Source: Mytilus edulis (Eukaryota). From it: 64,000 nt of DNA. Under the pieces are notes generated by a model, which worked only from the letters and a program-made list of their open reading frames with translations, searched no databases and had not been told where the DNA came from. The first letter of the stretch is position 1; each line of letters starts with the position of its first letter. Both the position numbers and the translations under genes were made by a program. Shown in pieces: positions 12,301 through 55,779 of the stretch. The DNA lies in NCBI RefSeq assembly GCF_963676685.1, contig NC_092353.1, positions 59,024,001-59,088,000 on the forward strand, read 5' to 3'.

Positions 12301-15300
12301 CTTCACAATCTAAAAACACAAATCAAATTATTGAATGAGGGCTTATATTGTTGATACATTATTATTAGTTGAATAACAATTTTCGTGATTTTTTTTAGGA
12401 TACAGGTGAACCCCGAATTAAACTTTCAACGAGTAACAAATTGTTGGCAATAACAAGAAAATTGAATAACCACGAACATGTTAGTTTTCTTTAATTCTTG
12501 AAAATTGATATCCTAAAAAATAAAAGAAACCACAGTATGTTGAGCATGTCTCTTAAAACTTTTTTCATGATTAAAAATGGTTTATGTTTATCTGAATCCA
12601 ATGCTTATGGTAAATAATCGTTTGGTGTATTTGAGCTTTTGATTGCCATTTAAATAGGGACTTTCCGTTTGTAATTTTTAACCAATTGAACATTTTTTCC
12701 GTTTTTTTTTTCACAATATGACTTCGAGCTGATGTTGACAGGAAGGGGATTTCGACCTATCTGCCTTAAACTAAAGGACAATAAACACAAAGAATTTAGC
12801 GTATATTTATTAAAATAAATATTACTGAGTTTAAACAAAATTAGTTTATGAAATAATTGTACTATTCTAAATAAAGGCAACAGTAGTATGCCGCTGTTCA
12901 AACTCATACATCCATGGACAAAAAACAAAATCGGGGTAACAAACTAAAACTGACGGAAATGCACCAAACATAAGAGGAGAACAACGACACAACACTACAA
13001 TGTAACACACACAGAAACGGACCAAGCATCAGACAAAAGAAAGATTATTTTTGCATGTGTTTTCTAATTTGACTGTGACGAAGTAAATGAAGATTTTGTA
13101 ACTGCTGCCGCACAGGTTTTTTATAACTTGAAATCTATAAGTAGATTTACTTTCTTAGAGTGAGTCTGATAATATGTATAACTTTAATTGAAATTATTGA
13201 CGTTTCCACTTGCAATACAAGCACCACCGTAAGGCGAATCATTCAAAATGTCATGAAACAGTCGAAGGGGCAGTTCGGTAAATGTACTGATTTAACGAAA
13301 ATTCTAAAGAATAAAGATGCAAAACAAATATGTTTTGTGTTGTTAGAAATATTTGTTCGTTAAATACTTCATTGTAGTGACCTAAATACAAATTTAAAGT
13401 ATCAATTTCTGTCGTTATTCCTCCTCTTTACCGAATAAGAGGATATTTTGCTTTATAGCCACATGTGTGTAGATGGAATAAATTCAATTGAAATAATTCT
13501 GATACATAAAAGGTTCTTCAGTGTTTGCTTTTGGAGTCATGTGTTAATGCTATTGGTTTCCAATGGACAAATCAGTTATATTATGTCAATTATTTTTATT
13601 TTGAAAAAAAAACCAACATTGTAGCAATTTTAAAAATAATGAAAACATTGAAATTTGTCTGAAGTCATAGTTACTTAATTTCGTCAAAAGAAGAATGGTT
13701 TTCTGAAATATTTTTTTTTCAAACTATTTATATTTACTTCACAAAATGTAACAAAAATGTGTGTTTGCTAATCGTAAAAAGATAATATTAAAGAATTTAA
13801 TAAACAAACTCTTCTAACAAAGCTACGTTAATTGAAATGAATAAATTATACAATCCCTTTCATTGAATTACAAATCTAATTTGACTTTGTCCCAACTCAT
13901 TTGCGATACGTTTCACTGTGATAGATTTTGAGATACCAGAATAGGTGTCTGATCTATACACACATTGATTATGTTCCCTTCTCGATTGTGCCATATTGAC
14001 TTTGTATGTATTTCCATATCGGCTGATGCAACACAGAAGGAGACGCTTACCATATCATTGCACCTTGTTTCGCTCTTCTTTGAGTTTGCGTGATTCCTTT
14101 CCATTTTAGTTTTACATTCTAATTCACCATCGTTTGTTCAGGGTTTTTTTAATGGATAACGTCACCATTTTTCATGGATAACGTCTTCATTAAGAATGTA
14201 CGCGCACGAGCAGATAACGTATGACAGATTTTTTATATAGGATTTGACGTTTTTTTTCTGTCAGTTTTGTTTTAATGGAGATAACAATATTATCAATTGA
14301 TGCCGTCGGATCTTAAACATGTTAAAATACAATGTTGTTATCTCCTAATTCGTTTCTTTTGGGTTTATTTAGTAGGTTTTAACATAGAAAAACTACTGTG
14401 ATTAAACATCTTTACATACCACAGAAGGGAATATTACAATAATTCCATTCGTCATCAGGGTCCGTGGTATAACACCAGGGTGAGGATTCACCGTCTGGAT
14501 TACGACAATAGTTATGTTTAAATGCTGATACGAACGTAAAGTTGTTAGGAGGATTAGGAGTTTTTTCATCCCACCTTTGACAGATCGTGTTGGTGACAGT
14601 TACGCTGATTGTTCCTCGATATTCACTACCTGCTGATGTCGTCTTACACTCACGACAAAAGGGAATATTGCAATACTCCCAACGGTCATCAGGGTCCGTT
14701 GTATAACACCAAGGCGAGGAATCACTGTCTGGATTACGACAATAGTTGTGTCTATATTTACGAACGGACGGATAGTTTTGAGGATAATGAGGAGTAGTTG
14801 AATCCCATCTCTGACAGGTCCTACCGCTGCTAGTCACACTAATTGTTCCTCGATATTCCGTTCCCTCGGCTGTTGTCTTACACTCCTCGCCTACAAAATT
14901 CCAATTGCAGAAGATGATATAACTGATGAGGATAGTTTTCTTTGCATTACAGTATATTGCTACCTTAGATTGCTATGTATTTAGTAATAAGACCTGGTGT
15001 TTTAATCGTATAGAAAAAACAACAGATAATGTGATTACCAATAAATTTAAGTCAAAATCCTTAATCACACAGGAATATTTGGTAAAATCAGAACTATGGG
15101 CTTCAATGATGTTGATACTCATAAAGCGCCATTAAAGTAAAAACAAGAAAGTAGTGGTTTTTTTTCAAAATATCTCTGTGCAGTGATATTGGATATGTTT
15201 CAATTTTTAACAAGTGACCAAATTTATTAACACTTGTTATGATTTAAAAGTAGGCAGCTATGAAAAGTATGCACAGAACTAAGATATAAAAAAGAAGATG

Positions 15301-18300
15301 TGGTATGATTGCCAATGAGACAACAGACCATAATGACACAGAAGTTAACAACTATAGGTCACCGTACGGCCTTCAACAATGAGCAAAGCCCATACCGCAT
15401 AGTCAGCTATAAAAGGCCCCGATAAGACAATGTAAAACAATTCAAACGAGAAAACTAACGGCCTTATTTATATAAAAAAAATGAACGAAAAAAAAATATG
15501 TAACACATAAACAAACGACAACCACTGAACTACAGGCTCCTGACTTGGGACAGGCACATACATAAATAATAAGAGTTCAAATAACTTATTGTATGAAAAA
15601 GAAATCTTTTACTCCGTGAAGCATGTGTAGCATTAGAAAAATGATTTTCTGGGTGTAATTTGTGAAAAAATAATTTTACTTCGTAACTAGAAATTATGAC
15701 CACATATGCGAGAATGTCTTAGCTTCGAAATAAAATGTCCAATTGTATTTTTGTCAGTCTGTCGAGTTAAGCCTTTTTCAACTGATTTGTATAGTTCATT
15801 CTTATGTTGTACTTTTATACCACTGTCCCAGGTTAGGGGGATGGTTGGGATCCCGCTAACATGTTTAACCCCGCCACATTCTGTATGTATGTGCCTGTCC
15901 GTATACAGGAGCCTGTAATCTAGTGGTTGTCGTTTGTTTATATGTTGCATATTTGTCTTTTGTTCATTTTTTAGGTAAATTAGGCCGCAGGTTTTCTCAA
16001 TTGAATTGTTTTACATTGCCATTTCGGTGCCTTGTATAGCTGACTATGCGGTATGGGATTTTCTCATTGTTGAAGGCCGTACGGTGACCTATAATATTTG
16101 TGTTATTTTGGTCACTTGTAGAGAGTTGTCTCATTGGCAATCATACCACATCCTTGTTTTTATATATACACATCCACATTTACACTATGGCTAAAATAAT
16201 TGAAGAAAAGGCTACCATTTCTAGCTTCCTGGATTGCATTATGCATGTTTATCCATTTCAAAAATAAGCCTTACTAAGATGTCAAAGTCAAGGCCAAATT
16301 AAATCTTTCACAGCATAAAAATACAAATAAATCACATGATATTTTATACATGTTTTACCTCATTTGCTTTTTAGTTTTGTTATAATTATAATCAAATACC
16401 TACTTGCTTTACAAATGTCATCCATTGGGTCGCGAAATTGCATTCTGGGATCTTGACAATCTGAAACAAAACAGGGCAATTGTGTAAAGCATGTCTTTCT
16501 ATACTCTTTTTTTAGGAATGAACATATAACACGATTTTTTTTCAAATGACTTATAGACAATAATATATTGGTTTAAATCAAATTACATTGAGTCGATTAG
16601 AAGAGTAAGGTGATGTTGATATATTTACCCTGAAATGAGGGATCACAATCTCTAAGAAACAAAGTGTTCTTGTACTTCAAAAAATATTTACTGATTCTAA
16701 ACATATTATAGATATCTTTCTTTGAAAGATAAGTGTTGCTTGTATTTCCTAGTTTGTCTTTTCCTTAAAGAGAAACTGATGTCGAACAGGCTTATTATGT
16801 CTTCGAATCTTATCGGATACCGTCTCTCTTACAGTGAGTTACATAATCGGTACAAAATATTATCAGTTTCATTGAAATTTTAGATGTTTCATCATTCTGT
16901 GGAAATACCTGCTGATTTTTTTTCTGGTTACCAGACCATAATTATTCAACTTGATTTTTATCTAATTTTTTAAGGAATTTTTTTAAGTGTAATTGGTTGA
17001 AACTTTCCCGTGGCAAAAACTTCAGATGGTGTCCATGTAAAATAACCTATTCACAGATATTGAACCAGAGATTTTTTTATTTCGATTGATTGCGGTTTTC
17101 AAGTTGATTAGTTTAAAGTAACCTATCATATGACACTTGAAGTGACTCTGAGTAAATCAGAAGTTGCATTTTGTTGCCCCCACCTTTAAGACAAATATAA
17201 CTTACTTTTGAAAAAAAACGAGTGTTAGAAATTACAATTGTACCGTTTATACTTACCACAAAAGGGAATATTGCAATATTCCCATTTTTCATCAGGATCC
17301 ATGGTATAACACCAAGGTGTTGAATGATCGTAAAAATTTCGACAATAGTTGTGTTTAAATCTGGATAACACTGTAAAGTTTTCAGGATGATGAGGAGTAG
17401 TTGAATCCCACCTCTGACAGTTCCTGTTGCTTCGGGTAACGCTGATCGTTCCTAGATATTCAGTACCTTTTGCTGTCTTTTTACACTCAAGACAATAAGG
17501 AATAGTGCAATACTCCCAACGCTCATTAGGGTCAATGGTGTAACACCAAGGTCTGCTCTTATCGCTATCAGTTGGGTTACGACAAAAGTTGTGTTTAAAT
17601 GTATCTACTAATGTATAGTTTGTAGGATAATGAGGAGTAGTTGAATCCCACCTCTGACAGGTCCTGCCTTCATCAGTTACGTTGATTGCCCCTCGATATT
17701 CAGTACCTTTATCTGTGCTCTTACACTCATCGCCTGCAATATTCAAACTAACAAAGGTAATATAATTGATGTCAATAACTGTCTTTTTTAACTGTGAATT
17801 GAAACCTAATAATGTTATCTATCATACATAAATTGATCCGTCGTCGTAAAGATTGTATAATAGTTTTTTTGTTGTTCAATTTATTTGTAAGATAATATAA
17901 TATTGTTGACCTTGTAGCTGTATTTTCAGCTTTATTTGATTCAAAATTACAGGCTGTGTTGTGCCGATCTTATGTGTTATGCCATTTTCAGTTTTTCGAC
18001 GTTGTTTTTTTTATTCGTACTTTTTCGCCTTTAATCGGCATTATCTCAGGTTAGGAAAAGAGTTTAGAGCTGAACGTTGTTCCCTTCTACATGTGCCTTT
18101 ATAAAGTCAGAAGCCTGTAATTCAGTGCTGGCTGTTTGTTGCGCTCTTGTTTCTTTTTCTATTTGTGAGTTTGAAAATCCCTTTTTTTATCGTATGACTC
18201 ACTCGGTAAAACATTTATATCTTCAACAAATAACTAAGCTAGCATTTTGCTGCAGCCAGGGCAAAAATCAAAAACGACGACATGACAAACAAAAGTATTT

Positions 18301-21300
18301 TAAACACAAGTTTGAAAACTAAAGACTGAGCAACGCGTAACTAAAAACACTTTGACCATGCAATATATTTCGTTCCGAAATATGAAGATGTGGTATGATT
18401 ATCAATGTTTTATCACCAAATACTAAATGATATAATAGAAGTTATTTACTACAAATAAAGTATATTGATGAGTTTGTTTCATTAACTAATAAACAAGTGA
18501 ACTTAATTTTGTCAACTCAACTTAAAGATAAACACATACGTGGGTAACAGCTATTATCATGTTCGTTATAGAAATGCGCTGGTTCACAATCACATGTCCC
18601 AGAAGCACAAATTAAAGGAGAGAAACAACTGCTTACAGTTGTCGAACAAGGATCCTGGTAGCTTCCAACTGTCAAAAAATCAATCAAAATATATTCTTAT
18701 AATATTAAATATACGTAATCTACCGGAGGTTATAACCAAATTGTAACATATATATTACCTTTAAAGTTATTAAATATATACAAATATTAATAATTTTGAT
18801 CCCTAATTTGATGGGGAAAAACCTGACTCAGACATAATGCCATTATTTTCTTTTTATTAATATTCAAGTTCTGGTCTGATTATTGATTACTTTTTATACC
18901 TCAGGTTTGAATGTTAGAAATAAAATTAAGGACTATTAAAATATATATTGATTGAGTGGAGGGAAGTTAAATTTTTGAATGTAGGTAATTGGTCCTTTTT
19001 TTCAGTTTGCGTCTATGCATATAATCCTTAAAATCGTTCTTGGTCGGAGGGATATTTTGAAAGTCTCTGCTTACCTTACCACATACATTTAAATGGAATA
19101 GCCCTGGAAAATTTAAGCTTAAGATTGCAAAATTTATTCTTACATAAAAAAGTGACATTATTTTTATATCATTAACATCCTTGACAAATAATAGTTCATA
19201 TAGTGATTACAATTGAGAATGGAAATGGGGAATATGTCAACGAGACTACAACCCAACCAAAGGAGCAGACAACAGTCGAAGGTCAACAATGGGTCGTCAA
19301 TATAGCGAGAAAATCCCGCATCCGGAGGGGGTCCTCAGTCGGCCCCAAATAAAATTGTGTACTAGTTCAGTGAAAATGGACGTCACACTAAACTCCAAAA
19401 CATATAAATGAACTAGAATTATTCATACTAATCAACTTTCGAATCTGTTGCATACATTTACCGAATTGTGACATTGAGTTGTCTTTCCCTCATAAACCCG
19501 CCTTATCTGGAAAATGGTGTGAACCACATGTTACAATGGTGTATAATTTATGTTTTCAATATGAACAGTAAAGTAAAATTATAACTGAAAATATCCAGAT
19601 AAAGTAACTATTTGTGATACAAATTTTATTGTCTGCCAGCTTAACGTCTTTCTTTAATTTGCCGTAATACATTTGTAAGAGGATAAAATGAAAAAAAAAT
19701 ACATTTTAAAAATGTCATACCTTATTTCTTTTGAGCTGTGTCTGACTTACAATTAAGCACTTACTTGCTTTACAAATGCCATCCGTTGGGTCTCGATACT
19801 GCGTTTCCACATTTTCACAACCTAAAAAAATAGTATTGTAACAGTAATACTTGAGTAACAATTCAAATATGCGGGTCTAAAGCAAGATACAATATGACGA
19901 CGAGTCAAATTTTACAGGAAGGTGATTTCGAAATATATGTCCCTTAAAAAAGTATAACAAACACAAAGTATCGAAGTGTATTTGTGACAGATAAAAATTT
20001 TAACAAATCGTTTAATCAGCTTTATTCGTTTAGAAATAATCAAATTGTACTATACTGAAGAAATGTTAGTCTGTTTGTGTTTTCTAGATTGATGAAATCA
20101 AATTATGAAATGAAATACATGATTGTTGTCCTACATACAGGCTTATTAACTTTTTTTTAAATCATAAAGACAAAAATAAATTCTTACAGTGAGATACAGT
20201 TTACATTTAAGGATAAAAAGTATAATTTTAATCTTAATGATAGAGGTGTCCACCTTTTTGTAAAGATACCCTTAGATTTTGGACAAGTTATATTTTTTTG
20301 TAGAACTACATATGATTTTTTATCAGATTATTAGATTCTTTTTACTTCTTCGTTACAAGAACTTGAGAAAGTATCCGTGTAAAGTTACCCTACATAGATT
20401 GGAAAACCTAGATGATATTTTTAATCCGGTTGTAGCCAATTGTTTGCGATATTTAAGTAGAATTGGTTGAAAGTAACTATTTTTTGTTTTGTTTTTTGAA
20501 GTGACTAAGAGTAAGACAGAAGTTTTTTTTCCGTTGCTATCACTTTCATTCAAAATACAAATCTCTTTTTTAAATCAGCGAGTATTAGAATTAACATTCT
20601 AACGATCATTTTCATATATGATATCAATAAATGTAAATACAATGGCGGAAAGAAGTTTGATTTTACATGTACATGAATTTTAATTTATACAAGCGGCAAC
20701 ACCACCGTTTTACTATTTAAAACTGGAACATGTGTTAAGAATATATAAAAAAGGAAAAAAAAAAAACTCGTAAAATCGAACAAACTGTATAAAGTTCAAA
20801 AACTGTCGTCCATAGGATCGTGGCTTCCCGTACGATATTTTAAGGCGTATAAGTACGCGGAAGGAATCAGGAAACGTAAATTTGTAGTCCTTACGGGCGT
20901 AGAAAGAAGTGATAAACCTGGCGTTAATTTAAATAAGGAAGGTGTGAATTTTTCTACTAGCGTAAAACTGTTGGTATGGCGTATATCATGATGCTGAGTT
21001 TTAAGGATTATAGGATATTTTTTTCAAAATTTGGCTCTTTGGTATTAGTTTGCAAGATTTGGACTTATGATCTTTATATATTCCTTATATATAATCATCT
21101 AGTTAAATTGCAGTACTATCATTGATAGTTAAGTTCAAATGATATTAATTTTCAAGAACGAAGATTTGTCATAGTTCTTATTTAAGGAGGTTCGCTACTC
21201 AGTTTCAAAATAACAAGCTTTTCATAACACTAGTGTATATCGATAAGGGATTTATAAAGGAACCAAAAAAGTAAAGATAAAGTATAGGTTAATATGCATG

Positions 21301-24300
21301 TTTTCGATACTAGGCCATTGAAACTTTGGCGGGAAAATTTCTCCCTTGCCTTTTCATATCTTTATCATTGACAAGTTTAAGTTCTCAAAAACTATTAAAG
21401 GATAACAACGATTTTGTAAGACTTTTACGGATGGCTTATAGTGATTCATGTTAAAGATTTATAAAGAGAAAAAATGGGGCCAATGGACTTTTTTTAAGGC
21501 TTTCAAATGGATAAAACCAGAGGATTCCGAAAGGATTCCGAAAATCTGACTAAAATTCCAAAACATTACAAGCGAACTTCCTTCAACTGAAAACATGACA
21601 AGCGAACTTCCTTCAACTGAAACTTATTTGGACCAGTGTCTGTCTAATATGTACTTATTTATATAGCTTCTTAATGCCTCAAGTTTTATGTCAAACATTG
21701 AGAAATTTAAGCAAAATTACAGACGTTTGTATCAAAAACACAAAAGTACACAGCTAGGGAAATACATTGATTTACATTAAGTGTTGTTTTATATAAGGAT
21801 ATAACACCTGGTTTATTTATTGACCAGGCGTTTGCATTTTCACATTAGGACTGGTTTTCTGTCAACCAGGCGTACTCATTTAAATATTACTCTGGATTCA
21901 TTTATTTTCGTGGGTATCAATAACCATGGATAAAGGAAAAATTGTATGTTCATGGATATTTAATTTTGTGGTTTTGCTGAGGTCTGCATACAGGTCTATA
22001 GAAAATTTGTCATTTGTTTAAGAAATAATTGATGCAGTTTTATGTGCAGTTTTTTTGTATGTAGTTTTAACCAGGGAAGGCATTATATTCGTGATTTTAT
22101 TTGCTCGAGCGATAGTGAGGGCTAAAATAACACGAATATAATGCCGACCAATGCTAAAACAACAATAAAGAATATTTTGCATCAATTATTTTTTATTCTG
22201 ATTAGGACAATTAAGGTAATTTCTATGTCCTATGTGTATAAGTGTAGAAGGTTTGTGTACGCTCTTCCACGAAACTACGTTTTGTCTGTAAACAAGCAAA
22301 TGACTTGCATTGTGATTTTTCAGAAGGAGGAGTTTGAACAGCCAGCATGAACGGACGTATCTAGGTCAAATATGTCAATTTTTAATTGCAACACATTACA
22401 AATAATAACAACAAATGCATCACAGTTTAGAAGTGTTTTAAGTTAATGAAATATATCAAATGCATGCCAATTTGATCAAATTCATTATTCTGCAGTAGTC
22501 AATTTACGCATGGGCAAAAAAAAAATTATTGGATTAAGAGCATGGGTTTTTTAAAAAGCGAAAGAAGCACGTCATATTAGAATGAACATTTAATTTCTTA
22601 GTTTACCCGTACCCACGAAGTCCAGGAAAATTGGTATCAAACGAATATAGTTAGTTGCTTTCAAGGCACATTCCTGTAAATGAAATCAATATAATTGAAA
22701 CAAATCTGATACATAGGATGTACCTCAGGGTTGGTTTTTTCTCTTTTGCAGTCAGGTATCAATGCTATTGGAGTCAAATGGAGAAATATACAATAATTGT
22801 TACAGTCATTTCCGAATGTCAAAATTGAAAATGCTAAAAAAAATATTTTGGTGCAAACAGTTTTCCAAATAACGAAAGCATCGGAAAAATTTCTGAAGTT
22901 ATAGTAAGTTGATCTGTTTTTTGTAAGATGATTATGAAACGGTGATTTTCTTAAATATTGCAGGCCTTTTATTAACCAGAAAAAACAAAAACTTTACAAA
23001 AAGGAATTTTCTTATCTTAAAAATATCATTTTAAAAAGTTCCATAAACTAAAAACTCTTCAATCAAATAAAGGCGGAAGAACGATTAATATTGTGATAAT
23101 CGTTGAAAGGTATTTATACGGTCCCCTCGATTGATTTACTTGTTTAATGTGTCTATATGTATCAACTCACTTTCGATAATTTTCACTGTGTTAGATCTTG
23201 ACATACGAGAAGTAGTGTGTGATCTATACACACATTGATTATGTCCTTTCCGATTGACTGATATTGACTTAGTATGGATTTGCATTTCGAATGATTCAAC
23301 ATACTCAACCTATAATTGCACATGATTTCGCTCTTCTATGAATTAATGTGATCTCTCCACACTCTAGTTTTACTTTCGTATCTTTTAAGTGGATTGATGG
23401 AGTTTTAACATAGTTAAACTTCTGCTATTTAAAATATATACTTACTACAGAAGGGAATATCACAACGATCCCACGTGTCATCAGGGTCTGTGGTATAACA
23501 CCAAGGTGACGAATCACCGTCTGGATTACGACAATAGTTATGTTTCAATGCTGACAAGAACGTAAAGTTTTTAGGAAGATGAGGAGTTTTTACATCCCAT
23601 CTCTGACAGATCTTGTTGCTGACAGATACGCTGATTGTTCCTCGATAATCAGAACCATCTAATGTCGTCTTACACTCACGACAAAAGGGAATATTGCAAT
23701 ACTCCCAACGGTAATCAGGGTCCGTTGTATAACACCAAGGTGATGAATCACCGTCTGTATTACGACAATAGTTGTGTCTATATTTACGTATTAACGGATA
23801 GTTTTGAGGATAATGAGGAGTAGTTGAATCCCATCTCTGACAGGTCCTACCGCTGACAGTCACGCTGATCGTTCCCCGATATTCTGCGCCCTCGGTTGTC
23901 GTCTTACACTCCTCGCCTACAATATTCAAACTAGACAAGATGATACAATTAATGGGGATTTTATTTGTTGTTTTTTTTTATCTTAGCAGTAGTTGGCACA
24001 AATCTTTGGAATTTTGGGTTATCAATGCTCATCAGCTTTATACTTGTTTTGCTTTCTTGATATTTTGATCTGAGCGTTAATGATAGGTCTCATGTAGACT
24101 AAACACGCGCGTCTTGTGTATCAATATTATATAAGTCTGGTACCTTTCATAACTATTTTTGTCCCTTACAGTATATTACTACAATTACACCACCATCTGT
24201 GGTAAAGGGAAGAGTTGAAAGTTGCGCAGACGTTATCAATCCCGCAAACTTCTTATTGTGGCTGTTCTTAGTCAGGGGTATGTTCGTCAAGGATTGCCGT

Positions 24301-27300
24301 ATGTTGCTGACTTTCATTTATTTTTATTTTCATTTATTTTTCGTTTAAATCATGCTGATTTTGAACTTTTTTACATTTGTCCTTTTCGGGATTTGTTTCA
24401 ACTGACTATATGGTTATTCGTAAAGGGCTAATCTATCAAAATGTATGCAGGGTAGGCAGGGACTTTCAAAATATCCCTACAACCAAAAACTTTTTTTTAG
24501 ATAATTTTGCATAAGTGTAATAGACGCATATTGAAAAAGACCCATGGCCCACCTTCAATAATTGAACTTCTCTTCCTACCTTCTAACATACATTTTTATT
24601 AAATATCCCTAAATACTATTGTGATTCCGAATATGTCAAAAAGAGAGGTAAATTGATATCAACGGAATGTTTTAACGCATAAGTTGGAACAGACTTACAA
24701 TGCCCGGGCAATAATGAAAACCGACACAAACACAAATAGTAAAAAAACTATAAAAAAAAGGAGCAACACGAAACCTTTTTTTTTCTTCGATTTTTTTTTT
24801 TTTTTTGTAATATATAATGATATATTTATAAGTTTGTTAGAATTGATTGACACTTTACTTTATCAACGCAACTGTTCACTTGTTGACAGTAAACAGTAAA
24901 GTACTAGTGTTCAGAAGTCCTAAATCGGGAGAAAACAAACTCGAGTTACAAACTAAATCTGAGAGAAACAAATGAACTATAAGTATAGGAGGGAATACAA
25001 GGAACAGCAACACTGAATTACAACAAAACCATACGTCAATATACATCGAAAATTACTATATTTGATGACAACTGCCATGTTCCTGACTAGGTACAGGACA
25101 TTTAAGAAAATGGTGGGTTAAACCTGGTTAAATGGCTAGCCAAACCTTTAAAAATCACCATCTTTTTGCGGTTTTTTTGTTGGCAATATGTATTTATAAG
25201 TTTGTTCAATGATTTTTGTCAAATAACACAAGAACTTATTCTTTCTTCACGAGCATATGTGATACACGCTATCCAATATCTGTTTTGTTTATTTGTTTAA
25301 TTTTTAGGGACAGTTGGTGGTATTACGAGGGGATACCTTCTGTGTTGACATGAATATCAATAATGTGATCATTTTTATAAATTTCCTGTTTACAAAACTT
25401 TGAATTTTCGAAAAACTAAGGATTTTCTTATCCCAGGCATGGATTACCTTAGCCGTACTTGGCACAACTTATTGGAATTTTGGATCATCTATGCTCTTCA
25501 ACTTTGTACTTGTTTGGCTTTATAAATATTTTGATTTGAGCGTCACTGATGAGTCTTATGTAGACGAAACGCGCGTCTGGCGTACTAAATTATAATCCTG
25601 GTACCTTTGATAACTATTTATACCACTGGGTCGATGCCACTGCTGGTGGACGTTCGTCTCCGAGGGTATCAACAGCCCAGTAGTCTACACCTCTGTGTTG
25701 ACATGAATATCAATAATGTGATCATTTTTATAAATTTCCGGTTTACAAAACTTGGAGTTTTCGAAAAACTAAGGATTTTCTTATGCCAGGCATAGATTAC
25801 CTAACCGTATTTGGCCCTTTTTTTTTGGAATTTTGGATCCTCAATGCTCTTAAATTTTGTACTTGTTTGGCTTTATAAATATTTTGATCTGAGCGTCACT
25901 GATGAGTCTTATGTTGGCGGAATTATGTAGACGAAACGTGCGTCTAGCTTACTAAATTATAATCCTGGTACCTTTGATAGCTATTTATGTGTAAACCTGT
26001 TATGGCCCTTTTCAGGGTGTTGTTAACTGTTATCATAGATCAATTAAAGCTGTTAACTGTTTTCAACCCAAAATGTAACTGTTAGCCAAAATCGAGGTGC
26101 TGTTTAAAACATGTTAACTTATTGTCCCCTTTATTACCACTTTCTTGATATCTTATCATGACAATGACTGGAACAAAATATTAAGAATTGTATAATAAGC
26201 GATATTTTTTTAAAATGAAAAAATAAATAACTTAAAGGTTCCACAAAAAAAAATGTTCCATAATAATAATTTATGATACAAAGGGTAAGGTCGGCCACTA
26301 ATTTCGCTCAGTATCTATAATCACACAAACAAATCGCCTAGGAATATCTGGAACGATCAGAACTATAGATTTCAATATCTAAAAAGCATTATTCTAGGAC
26401 AAACACAAAATATATGTACTGACATGCGACATGTTTCAATTTTAAACAAGTGACTGCATTTACTTCTTGTGTTGACTTTTAGAGCGAGAACAGAACTATA
26501 GAATAAACCCTTATCATCTTCTTTAAAGGTGCCAAAAGTATGCAGTTATGAAAAGTATGCAAAGAATATTCTTATTATTTAACTTATTGTATAAGTGGAT
26601 TTTTTTTACCTTATCATGCATGAAATACCTCGTTTGCTTTTTAGTTGCGTTAGTATTAGTTGCGTTAGAATAAGTTCCATTCTTACCTGCTTTACAAATT
26701 TTATCCATTGGGTCACGAAACTGCAATCTAGGGTCTTGACAATCTATAAAAAAGAATATTATTTCAACTGGGCAATTATCTTGAGCATGTCTCTCTTTAC
26801 TTTTTTTTTTGCTAGGAATAAATATTTTACACGATTGTTTGATAACATTGCGTAAAGACTATAACATAATGATATAAACACGATAACATAATTTACAATA
26901 TGACTTAGATTTCTGTTGAACAGTTAGTTAATTTCGACAAATCTATCATTCAACAAAGTAATAAGTAACGAGAGAGTACCTGGCTTGTTATTGTTTTAAA
27001 TCTTAGAGTAGATCGTCCTTCTAACAGCGAGTTAGACAATTGTTACAAAACAGTTATACAATTACTTTACCTTGTCTTTCGAAGATTATACAATTTGACT
27101 TTGATTTGATTATTTGATTGATTTTTACTTCTCCTTTTCAAGAACCTAATAAAGGATCCGTGTTAAGTTATCTAATATAGATAAATGTATGAAACCGGAG
27201 ATTAAATGTTTTATTTCGATGACAAACTATTGCAGTAGTATTTCGTAGCAAATAAGTTCAGAGGGGCGTAACTCATAGAAAAAAACCTAAATTATAATTT

Positions 27301-38827: not shown

Positions 38828-38858
<31 letters not shown>

Positions 38859-41800: not shown

Positions 41801-44800
41801 TAGTAGATCCTGCTCAACATGTTGCATCCGTCGTGTTGCTCATGTTATAGCAAATCCGGTAAATAGTCTAACTCTGTAGGTCACATTCATGAAAGGGTAA
41901 GGGATTGTAGTTACGACGTAAAGAACATATTCGATATCATCTGTGCGACGTTTTGCAAAAATTCAAAGTCATATACGTGAAAACTAAGCAAAAGTTTCAA
42001 AGTCAATAGACCATAACTGAGGGGGCTGGGTCAAATAATCCCCATGGTAGTGAGATGTGCCAATACTAATACAACTGCATACCGAATATCTTTGACTTAC
42101 CACTAGTGGTTCACCATAAAATTAAAAAAATATATACATTGTTGACGCCGACGACCCCTTACCTAGCATACCTATGTCTCGCTATTTGACTCCCTCAAGC
42201 GAGACAATAATTATCATTTATTATACAAATATTATATTACCTCGTGTGCTTTTAGTTGTACTTGATTTTAAATTAAATACCTACTTGCTTTACAAATATC
42301 ATCGTCTGGGTCGCGATACTGTGTTTCAGGATTTTCACACTCTAAAACATAAAACCATGTAATTGTATACGGGCAGTTATGATGACCATCTCTCTATGTA
42401 CCATTTTCTAGAGGCTGTACTATTAATAATATTAAATTCACACTAAAAAAGCATAGTATGATGATAATGATTGAAATCATAAAACCACAAGTCTTTCGGT
42501 CAGCTCAGGTATTGATAAATCGTTTCAAGGGTGTTGTAATGCTATGCCCGATCGCCCGACTTGTACAATTGAACACCCGGACAAGTTATTATTTTTGTCT
42601 GGGTTGCCCGTGGATACGTAAAAAATATAGAAGACAAAGTTAAAATCTAACAAAAACCGAATTAATTTAATGAACGCATAAAGATGTTTAATTTATGTGA
42701 AAGAAACCAATGATCAGCGAGTAAAAAGATATAGTTTAAGTCAAAACATCAATGTTCTTAACGATAAATATTAAATAACACCGGAAATAGATCGATTGCC
42801 ATAATACTGTGAAAGTACTTTTATTCGTGGGGAACCAATTATTGTGGTTTTCGTGGATGAATTTATCCATGCATTTAGGTGTCCAACGAAACATAATAAC
42901 TGTTGTGCAAATCAAGACATTGTTTGACTTCATGTATATGGCATGCCATAAAATCTAGAGAACAAATCAAATATCGTCAAAATGGCCAAATGCACTATGA
43001 AGTAAAACTGCAGGCAGAATCATACCCTATGCTGTGATGAAGTGTTAGTTTTATATCATTATTTTTCATACGAGAAATGATAATTTCATATCGATATCGG
43101 GCTTGCTTTTGATAAGAATTCATTTTACAATTCAAGGTACATTTATAGCATAAATTATGTTTATGACTCAATTAACACCTTTGCTAGTCTTTAATCTGTT
43201 AATCACACAATCTCGGGTTAATTTGTGTCATCACTTCACGTCTGCAACAATTCAAATGTTTACTTAGCAATTGCCTTCAATCAAGACAATTTGTAATCAC
43301 AGATGAAAGCACTTATTGTATTTCAAATTTAATGTTTCACTGTTCATTCGTATCGTCTGAGTGGATTTAAGAGACATTTACATTGGTTAAATACTTTTAC
43401 TAAAAATCCATACTTACCACAAAAAGGAATATCGCACCAATCCCAGTTGTCATCCGGATCCATGGTATAACACCAAGGTCTACTATCTGGGTCAACGACT
43501 GGATTACGGCAGTAGTTGTGTTGATATTTAGATACGTCCGTAAAGTTTCGAGGACGATGAGGAGTTTTAACATCCCATCTCTGACAGTTCACGTTATTGC
43601 GAGTAACGCTAATAGTTCCTAAATATTCAAAACCTTTTGTTGTCGTCTTACACTCGAGACAAAGGGGCACAGCGCAATAATCCGAACGATCATCTGGGTC
43701 GGTTGTATAACACCAAGGTCTGTCCTTATCGCCTGGATTACGACAAAAGTTGTGTTTATATGTATCTACGAATTCATAGTCTGAAGGATGATGGGGAGTA
43801 TTTGAATCCCATCTCTGACAGGTCTTGCCGCTTTCAGTAACGCTCATTGCCCCTCGATATTCCGTACCTTTAACTGTTCTCTTACACTCATCGCCTGAAA
43901 TATTAAGACTAACGAAGATAACAAAATTTATTGTCTTGTCTTAACTGGATATTGTTACCTTAGATTGATATCTATCATAAATAAATCGATACGGCGTCAT
44001 TAAAGATTACAAACGAGTATTTACTCGTTCAATTCATCTCTAACTCTTTTTTAATATTGCTGATCTTGTAAATGTATTGTCAGTATTTTTCTTTTTAATC
44101 ATAGCCTGTGTTGTGCGATCTGACGAGTCATGCCATTTTGAGCTATTTATTCGTTGGTTTTATGTTGTACCTTTCACAACTATTCGGCATTTTCTCAGGT
44201 ATGGAGAAGAATACAGAGCTCAACTACGTCCTCAACACTGTCATCTACGTAACTTATGTGCCTGTTCCAAGTCAGCAGACTGCAAGTCAATGATTGACGT
44301 TGGTTGCTGTCTGTCAAATTAAGGAAAAGGTTCACAAACAGCACAAAATGACTTAAAATATTAACTTTTAAAAAAAATTAAATAAAAAGGGCATAATTTT
44401 TGTTCGTAAATGGTATAATTCAAATGCCCTTATGCTCAAAAATATTTCATTTCATAAAAGTACATGATATTCTCAAAAGTAAGCTCATTTTCGATATTTT
44501 GTCAAAATATGACGACAATGGACGATTATGGACATTTTACAGCGTCAAAGCGTTTTGAACACCTAAGCCGCCACCTACGATCCAAAATAATTTGTTTCCA
44601 AAAGATTCCCATTTTTTATACAGAAATCATCATATACAAGCTTTTTGGATTGTGGATGGCAGCCAAGATAAAGTATGCCAAAAAAACTAATAAAATTATG
44701 GCGGGGGAAGGGGGGGGGGGAGGAATTGACCTTAAAATGCAAAGGTCATAGCTTCATAAATTTTAAAGGGAGATACCAAAAGATATATGTGTGTTCTAAT

Positions 44801-47800
44801 AGTATTCTCACAGTCAAGTAATTCTATGTAAAATTTGTACTTTTTGGCCCGATTTAAAAAAAAATTTAAAAAATCAGGGCCAATTTTAACCATTCGAAAA
44901 ACCTTCTCTTTTGTGTTTTTGTTTTGTGTAATTCAGGCTGTTTTTTGTTTGAATTGATTCTTATTTACATTTTATTGCCCATCATAGCTGAACATTTGGT
45001 ATAGGATTTGCTCAGTGTTGATGCCCGTACTGTGACTCAAATATTTATCAAACCAGTTCCACTGGGCCTCTGTTGGATAGTGGTCTCATTTAAACCATTC
45101 AACATCCCTTAACTTGAAATAATAGTAACCATTTAGATTAAACGATAAAATAAAAAAACAAAATATTTAAATACGTTTTGCTGAATAACTATGTAGCAGC
45201 TTTTTGCAATGGATTTTTTTCTTCTTTTATTCCAAAATATGAAGATGCGGTATAATTGACAATGAGACAATTCGTCACCAGAGATCAAAAGATATAGAAG
45301 TAAGCAACTATAGAAAATATGTTTATGAGTTTGTGTCATGAAATGGTGATATTTTTTCAACTCAACTTAATGATAAACACATACGTGGATGACATCTATT
45401 ATCGTGTTCGTTGTAGAAGTGCGCTGGTTCACAATCACATACACTAAAAGCACAAATTAATGGAGAGAAACAACTGCTTACAGTTGTCGAACAAGGATCT
45501 TGGTAACTTCCAACTGTAAAAAACAAATCAATCGACATTTAATTGATGCTCCTTTTTTTTCGATAATTTATTATCTTGGTCAACCTGGATCGTAGTCAGA
45601 ACTATAACATTCGTTAATTGAATCACTCTTAAAATATAAACAAGGACAGGGACAGTCTAAACTAACGGGGTTGGTTACTATTGGTTTTATTTAGATAATA
45701 CGTCCCTGTGTAATGTTAGTACCAAGCAATAAACTAAGTTACGTGCCTTTGATATGCGAAGCTGGCTGTTTTTTGCGTATTTCTATTTAGGTTCATTGTA
45801 TTTAAAAAGAAAATCTAATAAAAAAAAAATCTGATTAATAACCATTAACCATTGCATAACCAAAAATGCAAGATTTTGATACAAAATTAGAAATGTTAAA
45901 TTATTTAACTGAGATATCCCGTTGAGAAGAACAGTACAGGCGTGCAAAAGGGAGTACATATGTATTGAACATGTTGAACAAGATGGCGGCTACAAGAAAT
46001 TAACAAACAAATACTAATAGTTCAAAGGTTTATTTATGAAAAACTATCCGAGGAATCTTTTCAAAAACAGCATTTTACAATGACAAAGTGTGAACAATTG
46101 CAATAAAATGTTACTTCTCTAAAATTGCAATTTGAGTTATAACTATAAGTCCAAATCAAATTCAAATGTTAATGTTGATTGCGCTATATTTACAGAAAAT
46201 TGCCCTAAAAAACACCAGCTGCAAACGGTGATCCTTTTGCTTTTTTGGCTACATAATATTGCCAATATCGACAGATAATGATCAATCATATTTTAAAAAA
46301 GGCCAATGAAAGAACTTAAGGATCACAAAAGGTATGTTTGGTAAAAAATAGTTTTCCGATATGGAAAGACATGTAACCGAGTTAATTCTCGTTCAAAGCT
46401 CGTATGAAAACTGTTTGTACCATGCACTTTTCAGTATAAAATCTGTCGAATTCCTTTTAATGTTAAGATCATTATGATATACTTTATTAGTTTTTTTTAT
46501 TGAATACGACTGAAAATTAATTATTCAGATTAGTTAAGATTGAATACCCTTCCAGAGCAATTGTATACTGATTTATGTAATGTTCGCACATATCGGTATA
46601 ATGTTTTAACAAGTTTTGTTTTTATGTGCATATATGTAGGTTACAATGAAGAAATTTGTTTCATATTAGATATTCAATTAGAGTTGTTATATCAATCTCT
46701 CAAAATTTACCAGAACATACCTGCTTTCAAGCTATCTGATGAAGTTATAAAATGTAAATATCTGATTTCGTTATGCTCGTACGATAAATGAGCAGGCGAC
46801 TCGTAATAGGTCTGAATTTTAGTCAGATGGTTTTAACCCACGTTGTTACACTTATAAATAACATTTGGTACTATTTTTTAAATTTTTTTTTGTAACATAT
46901 ATATCACTTAGTATTGTTGTGAGATCTTTGAGCCATTAGAAACTCTTACGGAAAAAATATGAAAATAAAATGAGAAAATAACCAAAAGTCGCTGTCAGAT
47001 CAACAATAGAAGGCCCAGTGCACAATAAATATCCACAAACATACAATGTATGTAAGATTAGATGACATAAAACCAATTATTAATTAACATTTTGTTCGGT
47101 TATAAATCGATTTACAGCAAAAAATCCAAGTTACAAACTAAAACCGAAGGAAACACATGAACTATATAAGTCGCCGATAAAAACTTTAATAGTCAAAAGT
47201 GTGTAACGGAAAATTGCGTCAAACACCAACAATTCATCAATAATCTTTATTTGTCCCAAAGGGTATGACCAGCCAAGTAGTCAACACTTCGGTGTTGACA
47301 TGAATATCAATAATGTGGTCATTTTTAAACATTTCCTGTTTACAAAACTTTGATTTTTTTCGAAAATCTAAGGATTTTCTTATCTCAGGCATAGATTACC
47401 TTAGCCGTATTTGGCACAACTTTTTGGAATTTTGGATCCTCAATGCTCTTCAACTTTGTACTTGTTTGGTTTTATAAATATTTTGATATGAGCGTCACTG
47501 ATGAGTCTTATGCAGGCAAAACGCGCGTCTGGCGTACTGAATTATAATCCTGGTACCTTTGATAAATATTTAACAATGTATGTATATAAACTATTCATGA
47601 AGTGTATGTAGTGTTATTGCAAATGTAAGTAAATAAATAATTCCGAGTCTCAATTTACATAAAAGAACTACGTAGTTTTATAGAACTAAAATACCTTGAA
47701 CAGAGGAAGGTTTTTGTGGCATACTTATGATTATTGTCACTTCTACCAGTCAATGCAAGATTCAGCATAAGCAACCAAGAAACATTTAAATATTGAAATA

Positions 47801-50800
47801 TTGAAATATCAAAGTTTCAATCCAAAATGTTACCCTAAAAACATGAATATGACCTGTGTATTCTGTCCCTTAACATTTTTGCACTTTTAAGCAAGATTTG
47901 TGTTTTTAGCCTACTATTGACTACATACAAATTGCTTTATCAAAGAACAGCTACACAAGCTATCTTTTTTGCAGATGGTGGTATTTTGGCAACTGCATAG
48001 TACTTGAATATAATAAAATACTTACTTGCTTTACAAACATCATCGTCTGGGTCTCGATACTGAGTTCCGGGTTCACATTCTAAAAACATAAAAACATGTA
48101 TTCATAACGGGGCAATTATGTTGAACATCTCTTTCTGTACATTTTTAAATGAATAAACATGAAACTCGATTATTTTATCACATTCCTTATGAACAATCAT
48201 ATTCTGGTTTAAAGCAAGTCACAATATGAGTCTATGACTTCAAGTCACTCAATTTTCACGATGTTTTTACCAATTTATTGACCTTAGTGACTGGGTGATG
48301 CTGATGGATGTGTGACCCTGTAGTCTTAATGTAGAGTGAACCCTAGTGAACAAATTGACTTCAAAGTGTTGAGCTAGGAATGAACCTTATCTATGTTAAT
48401 AATAATGTATGATAATCTAAAGGCCAAGCCCAACAAAAATCTGGAGTGTTCCGTGTTTCCCGTTTTTAGGCTTCACCTGGAATAACCACAGATTGTCGTT
48501 CCTAACGAAAAATTACAGAAAAAACAAGAGCAGCTGTTCTATGTCCTATTGCCTCTGTACTGTGTGGCTCAAACACCAAACTATTGCCCGTCGCGTCCGA
48601 TTCAATTTACGATGTTCGTATTTTGGCTCATACTGGCCTTAAGTTAGCAATACACGGTTAGGAAAAAAGAATTCAAATTGACACTCATAATTTTTAACCA
48701 CCTTCTTTGCCTTCCTTTCTAACAAATAAGACTTTTTATACTGCACTCGTTCTATTTGAGCAGTCAAAATGCGTTGACTGTATATTTCTATGTCATATAC
48801 AGTCACTGACCCGATATCACTTTTCCTCATGAATATTTAAATAGAAATTGCCGAAATAATATTGGAATTATTCATACGACCTCTTCAACCTGTTCTTGTT
48901 TCTAATGCATACAACGATGCGTGGAACGACTCAACATTGTTTCTTTTGCAATTATTGGAAAAACATATTTAATTTGTTAATATTTTTTGTTTGCAACCTA
49001 TAAATCATTATGTTTTATGCTTATGGTTGATATTTAAGTCCATACTCTAACGATTTCGTTCACCATCGAGTGTTGGTTTCAACAGGTAAATGTTAATTTC
49101 ATTGTGTTGTATATTTCTCCGCGAGCATGATGTGAGGCCTTTTTAAAGGGTATGTTCCCCAATATTTAAATCAAATAAATAACCTTAACGCATTAAACAA
49201 CAATTGAAAATGTTTTTTTAGATTGCAGTATAAAGACAATAATAGTGCATTGACTTGACATATCAACGATATAAGGATTCGGCCCGAAACGGGGAAATAG
49301 CTCGGCACAGCCTCGCATTTCCCCGTTTCTAAGCCTCATCCTTATATCTTTGATATGTCAAGTCAATGCACTATTATTGTCTATATATTTCTGTTACTTT
49401 GTGTATATTTATTTATAGAGCATCTCCCTTATATTTCATTTAAGATAGTTATAATCGTGAAATATAATCACCTTTTAGTCATTGTTTGTGTTACCATGGC
49501 AACAATCTGCATTTATTTGATTTAAAGGGGGGTGCCACAAAAGACTCAAAATGTAGTCCGAATAAGAATTGCAATCCATTAGAGTGATATCTTTTCTGAA
49601 ACAATACACATACATCTTTCACAAAGTAAAAATAAAAGCACATGCATTTCGGATCATTTTCCATAAAATTGAATTGAAAAAATCGGGGGTCAAAACATTG
49701 TTGAAAAACATTACAATGATTTTTGGACCTATGGGCAGTACGGATTTAAAAGATAGACTGTCAAACAGAAAATTTTTATAAATGTTCATATATCATAAAC
49801 CCACTTGGAAGACTATATTATACTTCAGCTATCTAAAAATCAGCTTTCATGTACACAAACTTTCATATTAAAAAAATAATCAAAATTATTATGACCAAAA
49901 AGCGAAACTAAACTTATAACTGAATTGCTACCGAAACCAGGGAAACATGACAATTATTGGCCGAAGGTTGAGGGAACATGCTTCAATGTCGACAAACTTA
50001 CAATACAGCTGACCTATAAAACATAGAGAAGTTCAAAGAGTCACTGGAGCCATAAAAAGACTATTTTTGGGAGAAGCTGTAACCGCGCATGATAAGGGTT
50101 CCTTACATCGTAAAAATTACAATGTAAAACAAAACTTGTAGCGGGTGAATTTAGACATAAAAATATATTTTCGTTTACCAGTTTAACTCTGGCAACAAAA
50201 CCGTTGAAGTATTGACGACGTTTTGCATCTACTAATGTAATATTCCAACGGCTTTGTCATGATGTTGTCACTTATTTGGTAATAAAGATATAAACTGTTA
50301 TTTGATATTCCTTTGAAAATGATTACTTTGCAATTTCCTCATGGGATTCCTCCTGTAAAATGACAGAAGAGTACTTTATCTTTAACAAAACAAAAATGCA
50401 CCGAAAATTATTATATAACATGATTAATGATTAGGACTGGATTCAAATATTTACAAGTGTTTCGGTCATCGCAATGTATTCATAAACCGTTTGAGTATGT
50501 CTGTGTATCAATAAACTGCAGGATTTTGAAGCATTCTGTAATGTGCTGAATTCATGTTTCATTCTTAGGCCTTGAATTAGCGAAAATTTATATTAAAAAT
50601 GAACCATACATTTTGAAATTTCTTATTGAACACATCTCTTTGAAATGATTTCGTTAATTTTGATTGTTTTTATATAATTAGAATTAAAGTCTAGTAATAT
50701 GTCTACAAATACACTTTACTTGTTCTAGCTGTTACACTCATGATAGAGTTGGGGAGGCAGTTCGACGTAAACGTATGTATTCGTTCGCTCTCGTCTCCGG

Positions 50801-53800
50801 TTGTATAGGGAACAATTTGTTTCATGTCTCGTGTTTGGATAATACTAGTCACAGGAAAATATTACCTCATCTGTATTTGGGAAAATTTTAGTAATTTTTT
50901 ATCCTTAATGCTCTTCAACGTCGTACTTTATTTGGACTTTTTATTTTTATTTTTTTTCGGGTGTCACTGATAAGTCTTAAGTACATGAAACGTGTGTCTG
51001 GCGTAAATACAAATTTTCAATCCTGGTTTCTAGGATGAGTTTATATGAACATAAGAGCCCTTGCTATAACACTTTGAGGGGTTGTTAGTAGACCTGTTGG
51101 TAAACGATGAAAGGCAAATTGTCTGCCCCTTTTCAATCCCCTAATTTCCAGAGCTAGTTTAAATTTTTATCACCTACTTTGTTATCAGTCAACCATGCAA
51201 ATACTATATATTGTATTGGCTGTATATGTGTAAACGTTCTGAATATGCACAAAAAAAAATTGTATCAGTACATAAACAAACAGAAAATTCAATATCTTAA
51301 TTTAATATCACAGTCAATAGATTTATATAAACGCGTGACACTGATGTCAGGGCACACAACTAGAATGTCTGATATAGCCTTTAACCTTTATTATTTTCAT
51401 TCAAGGCCAAAGCCTTCTTAATAAAAGTACAAAACAGTTGAAACAACCAAGTAAATGAATAAAAGATATTCTGAACATCCAAAGTCAACACATATGTGAA
51501 GGATTTGTTATCTTAAATTAATTGAGACTTTCATCTCCATGTTTTTTGATAAAATTAATTTAGAAACGTTATTGGACTTTATTAACATAAAAGGGAATTC
51601 ATTTTTGTTTTATCGTCTTGTTCCTACATCAGGCATGTACTAAACAGTTGTCCTTGAATATTGTAAAACTTTTTTGGACAGTAATGTAAATGAATGATTA
51701 TTTTACATACATTAAGAATTTAATTAATCTCCAGGCATTGTAGCTGTACAAACATTTGATTCCCTCGCATTTTAGTGTTTTTGTTTCTATGTATAACTTC
51801 TACGTGAATTAATTAGACTTTAACATCGGTGAATACACTCATATATACCAATATTAAAATTTGGTATATGCATCAGAAAAGTCTACAAAAGTCTCATCAG
51901 TGACTTGAATAAAAATATCAAATAGGCAAAATAAATAACGAGACTGAAGAGCATTGCGGACCAGAAATTCCTAAAAGTTTGGCCAAATATAGCTACAACA
52001 ATACTGAGATAGAAAAGCTCAAGAATTTCAAATTATGTTACTAAAAATCTAGACTTACCACAAAAAGGAATATCGCAAAAATCCCATCTGTAAAGAGGGT
52101 CCATGGTATAACACCAAGGTCCGGGCTCATGATCTGGATTACGGCAATAATTGTGTTTCATTTTAGACAATTCCTCAAAATTTGTAGGGCGATGAGGAGT
52201 TTCCACATCCCATCTCTGACAGGCTAAGTTGCTGCGGGTAATGCTGGTTGTTCCTCGATATTCAAGACCTTTCGATGTTGTCTTACACTCCTTACAAAAG
52301 GGAATATCGCAATAAGACCATGTGTCATCAGGGTCCATGGTATAACACCAAGGGCTGTCATCACCGTCTGGATTACGGCAATAATTGTGTTTCATTTTAG
52401 ATACTTCCTCAAAATTCGAAGGACGATGAGGAGTTTCTACATCCCACCTCTGACAGGTCTGGTCGTGTCTAGTTACGCTGATCTGTCCTTCATATTCGAG
52501 ACCTTTCGATGTCGTCTTACAGTCATCCTCTACAATAATCAAACAAAAAAGTTAATTAGAGTAACGAGGACAATTTTGTAATTTTCTTACAGTCAGTTCA
52601 TTGCTGCTTTCGATTTTTATACATCAAAAGCATGAAAAGGATATACTAGTAGATTTATCGCCATAGGCTAATACAGATTATAAGAAAATATGTACCTAGT
52701 TTCATTTATCCTTTCAAGTCTTATATAATAATTCTAATCCGGACATCACTATCAATTTTTGTTTTACTTCAATAACAAGCTGGGTTTTTTTTTCATAATA
52801 TAAAACATTTCCAACTGTTTAGTTGATCTGATGTTGTGCTTGTTTACCACTATAAAACAGGGGCGAAAGATACCAGAGGGATAGTCAAACTCATTGATCG
52901 AAAATAAACAGACAACGTCATACTTAACACAGAAAGAAAGACAAATAGATTAATATTAGTACGCAAGATATAGCCCAGTCAATCTAGCATAAATTAACCT
53001 AACCTTAAAGTTATTGCAACAGAATATTTTTAAGTTCTAATCTTTAGCATTATGCCACAAATATACACAGAAAAAAGTCTCATAAAATCTTACTCGAGGA
53101 AGACTAAAAATAATTATCATTTAAAATTCCAATGGAGATTTGAATTGAAAAGGGAGATAACTCTTGCAAAAAAGACAGAAATATCAATAAAAATTGATAC
53201 AAAATTATAACTTTACCGCTTCTATTCATCAGAATATATTGATTCTTGATATGATATCGGTCTTTAGGGTATAACAAACAACTCTAAAGGTGTTTTCATA
53301 TCTTTAATCAAGCTTTCATCTAGATTTCGTAATGCATTAGTTGACCATTAATTGAATTTTTCAACATGTCAAGGTAAAGAATCTCAAATTTTAAAAAAAT
53401 AGTTAAGCATGTATTCTTCTTTTTGTGGTTTAAAGTTTCTTTAGACAAGTAAGATGCTGAAAAATATGATATACAGATATAAACAATACCAAATTTTCAC
53501 ATTATTTTTTTCCAAACTGGTCACAAAGCTTCAAATTTGCAATTCCTTTAATGAAAAATGCACAAAAAAAATACAACTACCTATTACACTTCGGTTTTGT
53601 ACATTTTATGAGCAGTAGATTATATAATTTAGTTAAAAACAAACTTATAACCCCATCAAAGTATCATACTATACATAAGTTTCAAGAAAATCAACCTAAA
53701 AAGACCCCAAAAAAGACTAAATTTTTTCGGAGTTATCTCCTCTTCCAATGTTGATTTCCATAGGAAATTAAAAATGCTGATTTTGAGATTTCCTCAAGTT

Positions 53801-55384: not shown

Positions 55385-55428
55385 GCACTAGATGTGCATT
55401 TCGACAATACATGTCTCTTCAGTGATGC
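55385..55428 (-). ncRNA. Type I hammerhead ribozyme (family B, AUC cleavage triplet)
   Basis: GCATCA-CTGAAGA-GAC atgtatt GTC-GAAAT gcac ATC-TAGTGC; one stem I mismatch. Confidence 0.82.
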
Positions 55429-55732: not shown

Positions 55733-55779
55733 GCACCAGATGCGTATTTCGACTATCATATATGTCTCTTCAGTGATGC
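55733..55779 (-). ncRNA. Type I hammerhead ribozyme (family B)
   Basis: GCATCA-CTGAAGA-GAC atatatgata GTC-GAAAT acgc ATC-TGGTGC. Confidence 0.85.

Follow-up and report, generated by a model that had tools for sequence, protein, structure and literature searches.

Seven two-kringle exons at the probable outer tip of a polycystin-1-like receptor in Mytilus edulis

Each kringle of vertebrate PLG is encoded on two exons. For LPA KIV-2, a division of one kringle over exons of 160 and 182 bp is described; the product, apo(a), is secreted, has a protease-like domain and carries 1 to >40 KIV-2 copies per allele (all from an excerpt of PMC6314250). More generally, class 1-1 exons are the rule for shuffled extracellular modules, according to the available part of PMC8001218. 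For the polycystin family, GPS cleavage and PLAT topology have been described (excerpts of PMC1934368 and PMC5318412), and the PC-1/PC-2 channel is activated by the N-terminal part (PMC7728438). This report examines a window of 64,000 nucleotides (nt) from the mussel Mytilus edulis (G000:C10:59024001-59088000, the whole stretch analysed; contig NC_092353.1), together with the 200 kb around it. Its minus strand carries seven exons that each encode two kringles, and these probably form the outer tip of a polycystin-1-like membrane receptor of ~4,650 residues.

All seven exons (471-483 nt) hold two complete six-cysteine kringles in one frame, as the original prediction for this DNA had claimed. 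Each of the 14 kringles exceeds the Pfam Kringle family cut-off; in the first doublet exon (52529-52059), two stretches match the profile. The claim that the linker exons (one of 54 nt, six of 57 nt) and the 129-nt exons have lengths of 3n and phase 1 on both sides was likewise correct. The internal exons of the window comprise 7 doublets, 7 linkers and 13 six-cysteine exons, next to one signal-peptide exon. All 27 are flanked by AG/GT, are 3n nt long and have phase 1-1 borders; 17 of them lie within 14420..52529, the interval first described. The symmetry of the 27 exons is thus real, but it cannot be counted as 27 independent cases; since the exons are copies of only three modules, it reflects about three events.

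The gene extends ~71 kb past base 1 of the window, to G000:C10:58953187. The 45 exons found there are 26 six-cysteine exons, one single-kringle exon, 4 six-cysteine exons (30 of this type altogether), and then 14 polycystin-body exons of mixed phase. When joined, the 73 exons of the gene give one stop-free frame of 4,639 codons over 125.6 kb. In order, this encodes a signal peptide, then 14 kringles along with 7 two-cysteine loops and 4 six-cysteine modules, another 35 six-cysteine modules, a further kringle, 4 six-cysteine modules again, and finally HL|T, a membrane helix, PLAT, TOP and channel helices. The 58 consecutive ectodomain exons are all phase 1-1 (58/58), while exons 60-73 have mixed phases. 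A public M. edulis model, X1 (XP_071135411), contains all 73 exons in order plus 10 residues, and 7/8 public models are full-body ones that join the signal-led ectodomain to the body. In X1, Pfam identifies Kringle fifteen times, PLAT (2.4e-18, residues 3751-3856), Polycystin_dom (PF20519, 7.3e-31) and PKD_channel (PF08016, 4.5e-28); the last exons of the gene match the latter three profiles. The first membrane helix lies at residues 3695-3713 of the 73-exon model, with PLAT directly after it. Whereas the exon pattern was described accurately in the original prediction, this probable polycystin-1-like identity was missed.

The Pfam scan of X1 gave no REJ, PKD, PAN or protease match. In particular, REJ (PF02010) has no match in X1 at E 0.1, and it is present in 15 of the 19 relatives scanned; the gene is placed outside the REJ-bearing subgroup (SpREJ, PKDREJ, PKD1L2), despite 'PKD1L2' database names. 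PKD1L3 also has no REJ (PMC1934368, in excerpt). The Mytilus 'polycystin-1-like protein 2' (XP_076116543, P0123) shares HL|T, helix, PLAT, TOP and channel in the same order, with 68% identity over residues 3186-4633. Compared with REJ-less PKD1-like polycystins, 15 kringles, 7 loops and 43 six-cysteine modules replace the lectin/PKD domains here; in addition, a GPS cysteine pair is lost, the tail after the last helix is ~39 residues, and a single-pass ending is possible (see below). No paper on kringle-bearing polycystins, or on this gene, was found in searches of open-licence main texts.

Several database names (those of P0008, P0312 and P0315) would instead suggest a secreted plasminogen- or apolipoprotein(a)-like protein. 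The kringles, 15 in X1, do align to plasminogen chains, and one public model, X8, stops before the first membrane helix. Nevertheless, the probability of such a product is close to nil: neither X1 nor the M. trossulus model has a trypsin or PAN match, the doublet kringles are a clade apart from plasminogen, and membrane exons at either ending contradict secretion. X8 ends early because its acceptor is shifted to 73 nt upstream of exon 65, which introduces a premature stop.

The polycystin-1-like reading agrees with what is found in related mussel genes. Two paralogous loci carry kringle exons, six-cysteine exons and the same body, in order, and the public paralogues P0327, P0329, P0330 and P0332 join kringle or six-cysteine modules to GPS/PLAT. 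Their likeness to this gene is the same body with a six-cysteine spacer, and a kringle, of which they have no more than one, again occupies one phase 1-1 exon; the tip on that body can be kringle, F5/8 or C-type lectin. The signal peptides of P0330 and P0332 resemble that of the window. The paralogues differ from this gene in having no doublet exon, 2-17 spacer modules and a canonical GPS. Close paralogues are located at G000:C7:89.60-89.73 Mb, C9:85.94-86.0 Mb, C7:47.8 Mb and C1958, with 50-67% in the channel exon; they carry one kringle, F5/8-type exons and 2-17 six-cysteine exons. The genome holds at least 39 channel-exon matches, many of them on C9, which points to a large PKD1-like expansion. 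Sea-urchin SpREJ is comparable as a lineage-expanded PKD1 family with 1-11 membrane segments and variable tips; its single-pass and 11-pass forms are separate, REJ-bearing genes (both points from part of PMC1934368), whereas here the two endings share a single locus that has no REJ.

By analogy with vertebrate polycystins, a mode of action can be proposed. The kringle cluster would bind an extracellular ligand or surface, and the chain of six-cysteine modules would act as a spacer that sets the reach of the kringle tip. The receptor is predicted to cut itself at HL|T; pull or binding on the cleaved N-terminal part would then gate a calcium-permeable PKD1L/PKD2 complex. An M. edulis PKD2 accession is listed in PMC12677090, as far as the excerpt extends.

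Several points weigh against this relatively simple picture. Although the GPS region retains C.YW...W...HL|TDF and aligns with paralogues matching PF01825, one cysteine pair is replaced and, unlike the paralogues, it gives no Pfam GPS match at E 0.1. A hydropathy scan finds 10 membrane segments above a threshold of 1.7, where 11 are expected for the family; a further hydrophobic stretch, near residues 4010-4030, remains below that threshold. The public M. edulis models are predictions that may derive from the same DNA and are therefore not independent proof; the join of exon 55 to exon 56 is a predicted one, from the open frame and such models. Easy transfer of the vertebrate mechanism is made harder by the GPS cysteine loss, the absent REJ and the short tail, and ligand binding, cleavage and PKD2 partnership are predictions. 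Moreover, intron 55 contains three intact exons (G000:C10:58986593-58986453, 58985766-58985670 and 58985001-58984923) that encode a segment with four cysteines, a single membrane helix and a basic tail closed by a stop. Of the 106 residues of this ending, 93 are identical in the final stretch of the M. trossulus model, which terminates at this point; the models of M. galloprovincialis and M. coruscus, too, are separate from the polycystin body. As a separate observation, the GPS cysteine pair (exons 66-67, G000:C10:58964520-58963520) is replaced in the M. galloprovincialis and M. coruscus orthologues too, and is kept in the paralogues.

The intact ending in intron 55 therefore implies either alternative last exons or two neighbouring genes. 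In the latter case, a single-pass kringle/six-cysteine protein of ~3,120 residues would be followed by a short polycystin-1-like gene starting from exon 56, and the long models would be read-through products or chimeras. This would account for a conserved single-pass ending that the M. trossulus model uses and for the models of three other species, which never join the two parts; there is also a signal-peptide-like ATG exon (G000:C10:58980007-58979944, phase 1 end) 1.5 kb before exon 56. That exon is, however, within chance expectation (0.12-0.17 such exons per 6.4 kb). All 8 M. edulis models skip the intron-55 exons and join exon 55 to exon 56; the paralogues carry a kringle, both module types and a similar signal peptide on a polycystin body, and the two paralogue stretches examined yielded no comparable single-pass ending. 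Two genes are thus an unlikely arrangement, if one with an appreciable share of the probability, and paralogue architecture together with the signal peptides favours one gene. More tentatively, and with the balance somewhat against it, a kringle-tipped rod of ~3,000 residues may be placed on two anchors, a single helix or an 11-helix polycystin subunit, via alternative last exons. Combined with apo(a)-like gain, loss and collapse of doublets that change the tip between mussels, this would amount to a length-variable pair of receptor and decoy for a polycystin channel.

Within the window, the array begins with the signal-peptide exon (54702..54771, minus strand as for all exons below; ATG at 54756, ending in phase 1). 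The public model starts 7 codons before this ATG, partly on an upstream exon. A candidate for the first coding exon lies ~42 kb upstream, at G000:C10:59121082 (ATG TCG, then GTAAGC); from it the public models would take their first two residues. Doublet KK1 (52059..52529, 471 nt) is followed by the 54-nt two-cysteine loop ('linker') exon (48026..48079) and a 129-nt six-cysteine (EB/EGF-like) exon (45385..45513). Next are KK2 (43418..43894, 477 nt) with a 57-nt loop exon (42285..42341) and a 129-nt six-cysteine exon (37720..37848), and KK3 (35861..36337, 477 nt), the youngest duplicate of KK2, with loop (34255..34311, 57 nt) and six-cysteine exon (31909..32037, 129 nt). KK4 (28257..28739, 483 nt) and KK5 (23446..23916, 471 nt) are separated by a 57-nt loop exon (26687..26743); another (19765..19821, 57 nt) and a 129-nt six-cysteine exon (18540..18668) lead to KK6 (17257..17733, 477 nt). 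The series continues with a 57-nt loop exon (16404..16460), KK7 (14420..14890, 471 nt), the last loop exon (12253..12309, 57 nt) and nine six-cysteine exons of 129 nt, at 11539-11411, 10149-10021, 9157-9029, 7017-6889, 6038-5910, 5163-5035, 4355-4227, 2865-2737 and 307-179.

Upstream of the signal exon, the intron contains a 351-bp tandem repeat (window 55358-56253, 2.6 copies, 94% alike), and similar repeats are present in an intron of a paralogue. Two broken open reading frames on the plus strand (57272-59494 and 61015-62763) have cysteine clusters and a SWIM-like motif but no Pfam match at E 0.01; they resemble remnants of transposons or retroelements.

The term EB for the 129-nt exon is not supported by a Pfam match in this gene: EB (PF01683) matched neither three single six-cysteine exons nor X1. 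Paralogue P0332 does reach 27.4 against a cut-off of 24.3, and P0279, P0280 and P0330 match below the cut-off. The fold predicted for the module has a predicted local distance difference test score (pLDDT) of 84; fold searches with it turned up nothing clear (best Z 3.1; every Foldseek E at 1 or above), and its weak alignments to EGF-type Plasmodium proteins, although full-length, are no more than a hint.

How unusual is this arrangement of exons? Searching the genome with the Pfam kringle profile gave 212 candidates, of which 150 were scored: 14 doublet halves, the 1 single kringle of this gene and 135 kringles elsewhere. In 149/150, the match covers nearly the full profile in one frame; split kringles score lower and are hence under-counted in such a search, and one half kringle was seen. 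By their coordinates, none of the 135 other kringles lie closer together than ~750 bases, so there is no doublet among them. Likewise, 39 loci selected from the matches contain 80 kringle matches, none with two per frame. The full cysteine pattern is present in 62 of the 80; under an automatic rule, 46 of these 62 are phase 1-1, and in 45 the donor is positioned one base after the last cysteine, as here. Intron-free kringles had been presented as a special contrast to vertebrate PLG and LPA; as this genome normally encodes kringles whole and with phase 1-1 borders, that contrast is nothing particular to this gene.

It is the doublet exon alone that is unusual in layout; phase 1-1 symmetry is textbook. 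As in other class 1-1 shuffled modules, each ectodomain module occupies an exon of 3n length with a phase 1 intron on either side (PMC8001218, in the part available), but here one shuffled unit holds two domains, and another is the last loop of a module. The array resembles LPA KIV-2 in its tandem kringle units, varying in number (here between the models of different species) and with near-identical neighbours (excerpt of PMC6314250). It differs in that two kringles share one exon and that the product is predicted to be membrane-bound; the kringles are unbroken both in the DNA and in RNA-like contigs (KK6, KK7), unlike the two-exon kringles of LPA.

The proposal that the array arose independently of plasminogen/LPA held up. 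In a quick tree of 79 columns, with the 14 doublet kringles set against 39 other kringles, 10 vertebrate (including mouse and lamprey plasminogen), all 14 fall on one side of a branch with a Shimodaira–Hasegawa-like approximate likelihood ratio (SH-aLRT) value of 96. The first halves of KK2-7 group apart from the second halves, with many forks left open in the tree. In KK1, the two halves are each other's sisters and fall in the second-half group; KK1 was thus re-duplicated or converted inside the exon. KK2 and KK3, whose unit measures ~7.5 kb, show a synonymous divergence (dS) of 0.078, with flanking DNA 89% identical. The ratio of non-synonymous to synonymous divergence (dN/dS) is 0.21-0.53 in 21/21 doublet pairs, which points to purifying selection on the doublets. 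The first kringles of KK5 and KK7 keep D-x-D and R-W residues that align with plasminogen kringles; we take these to be a putative lysine site. A structure prediction for the KK7 doublet from 7 window sequences had a mean pLDDT of 37 and was not used.

The kringle junction itself gives some indication of how the doublet arose. The repeat period within a doublet is 234 nt, 3 nt less than two single exons would give if joined cleanly. KK5 and KK7 carry GTGAGT in phase 1 where their two kringles meet, at the donor position of single-kringle exons; these are the only 2 such sites among 1,088 phase-1 positions in the seven exons. The internal GTGAGT of KK7 has a donor score of 3.4, versus 7.7 for the exon end, and its use was not seen among the 15 joints listed (of 67). 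If used, these donor-like sites, at 14654 (KK7) and 23680 (KK5), would yield an in-frame single-kringle exon. Clean intron loss between two single exons, the simplest origin, was rejected: it predicts a spacer of 3 residues, and 2 are observed. A 2-residue spacer occurs in 14/187 short spacers of other kringle proteins. As inferred from the sequence, the doublet would stem from a duplication or a near-total intron deletion with its break in the donor; intron loss plus a codon deletion may also account for it. In the sequence of events proposed, an ancestral polycystin gene with kringle and six-cysteine modules would have had a phase 1-1 exon for one whole kringle, as is standard in mussels, and this exon would have doubled once, by a 234-nt duplication that fused the donor region of the first copy to the start of the second. 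The doublet and a 5'-truncated six-cysteine exon would then have spread through unequal crossing-over and gene conversion.

A source for the truncated exon is suggested by comparison with the type-II six-cysteine exons. Set against the final 57 nt of these exons, the 57-nt linkers (six) show 11-17 mismatches, whereas 42 are expected for random DNA (minimum 28 of 20,000); the 54-nt linker needs gaps and was left out. By this likeness, the linker is the last two-cysteine loop (cysteines 5-6) of the type-II six-cysteine module.

Copy-number variability, as suggested earlier, is partly borne out: unit numbers differ between the public models of four Mytilus species, counted in annotated models of assemblies, but alleles within a species are not supported in this way. 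Relative to the two KK2/3-type units here, the M. galloprovincialis model has three; two records of this species seem to differ (3 vs 2), and one of them is a broken model. The M. coruscus model counts six doublets, which are homogenised within that species. In place of KK2/KK3, the M. trossulus model carries four single kringles of the first-half type, three of them with 3-residue spacers. Phase symmetry would mainly permit this kind of copy-number evolution.

Evidence for expression comes from reads compared over window positions 12200-19900. Of four runs, three are contig sets from 3 studies, guessed to be RNA and taken as such because their contigs skip canonical introns; the fourth, raw reads of a related species (~6% read), has no exon depth and is no evidence either way. 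Four introns are exact to the base in 3 runs: 12309/14420, 14890/16404, 16460/17257 and 17733/18540. The joints on both sides of KK7, of the loop exon at 16404..16460 and of KK6 are thus covered, the last including the joint of KK6 to the six-cysteine exon at 18540..18668, and contigs run unbroken through both kringles of KK6 and KK7. With 4/4 listed exon-exon joints in genomic order, the kringle exons are expressed and spliced in order at these four joints. The linker at 19821-19765 has contig depth in 1/3 RNA-like runs. Intronic repeat elements at 12700-13200, 15284-16311 and 19139-19450 show very high depth in all four runs.

The original prediction further held that internal exons can be skipped without frameshift, permitting combinatorial isoforms. 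The first part is arithmetically true, and all cysteine counts are even (doublet 12, linker 2, six-cysteine exon 6). Extended to the 58/58 frame-neutral ectodomain exons, it would allow a Dscam-like hypervariable recognition protein, in which symmetric exons serve combinatorial skipping of doublets and linkers in each animal. Six of the 8 public models do skip exons of the six-cysteine type (1, 1, 2, 3, 4 and 18 in X2-X7), and contigs differ between runs at several amino acids in KK6 and KK7. However, no public M. edulis model (0/8) skips a kringle or linker exon, and no skip occurs among the 15 joints listed (of 67) in 3 runs, in contigs that drop rare forms. The average likeness among the skipped six-cysteine exons is 79%, and at some landing sites just 1-3 of the first 20 bases differ; as similar exons allow mis-mapping, the skips in the models may be false. 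Part of the differences between reads coincide with the letter at that place in a paralogous exon (7/8 in one case). Combinatorial skipping of kringles and linkers is thus not borne out, and a Dscam-like function is very improbable. Splice variation, if real, would be confined to the six-cysteine spacer and a likely alternative single-pass ending.

For the annotation of this family, the findings mean that mussel proteins named 'plasminogen' or 'apolipoprotein(a)-like' can be re-filed as the likely tip of a polycystin-1-like receptor. For the ligands and gating of polycystin-1 proteins, a paralogue series that keeps one body and varies the tip (kringle, lectin or F5/8) could show what tip and spacer length do, and the possible single-pass twin from the same gene would be a further comparison for such tests. 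The doublet exon itself records the making of a two-domain exon and, in M. trossulus, apparently its undoing.

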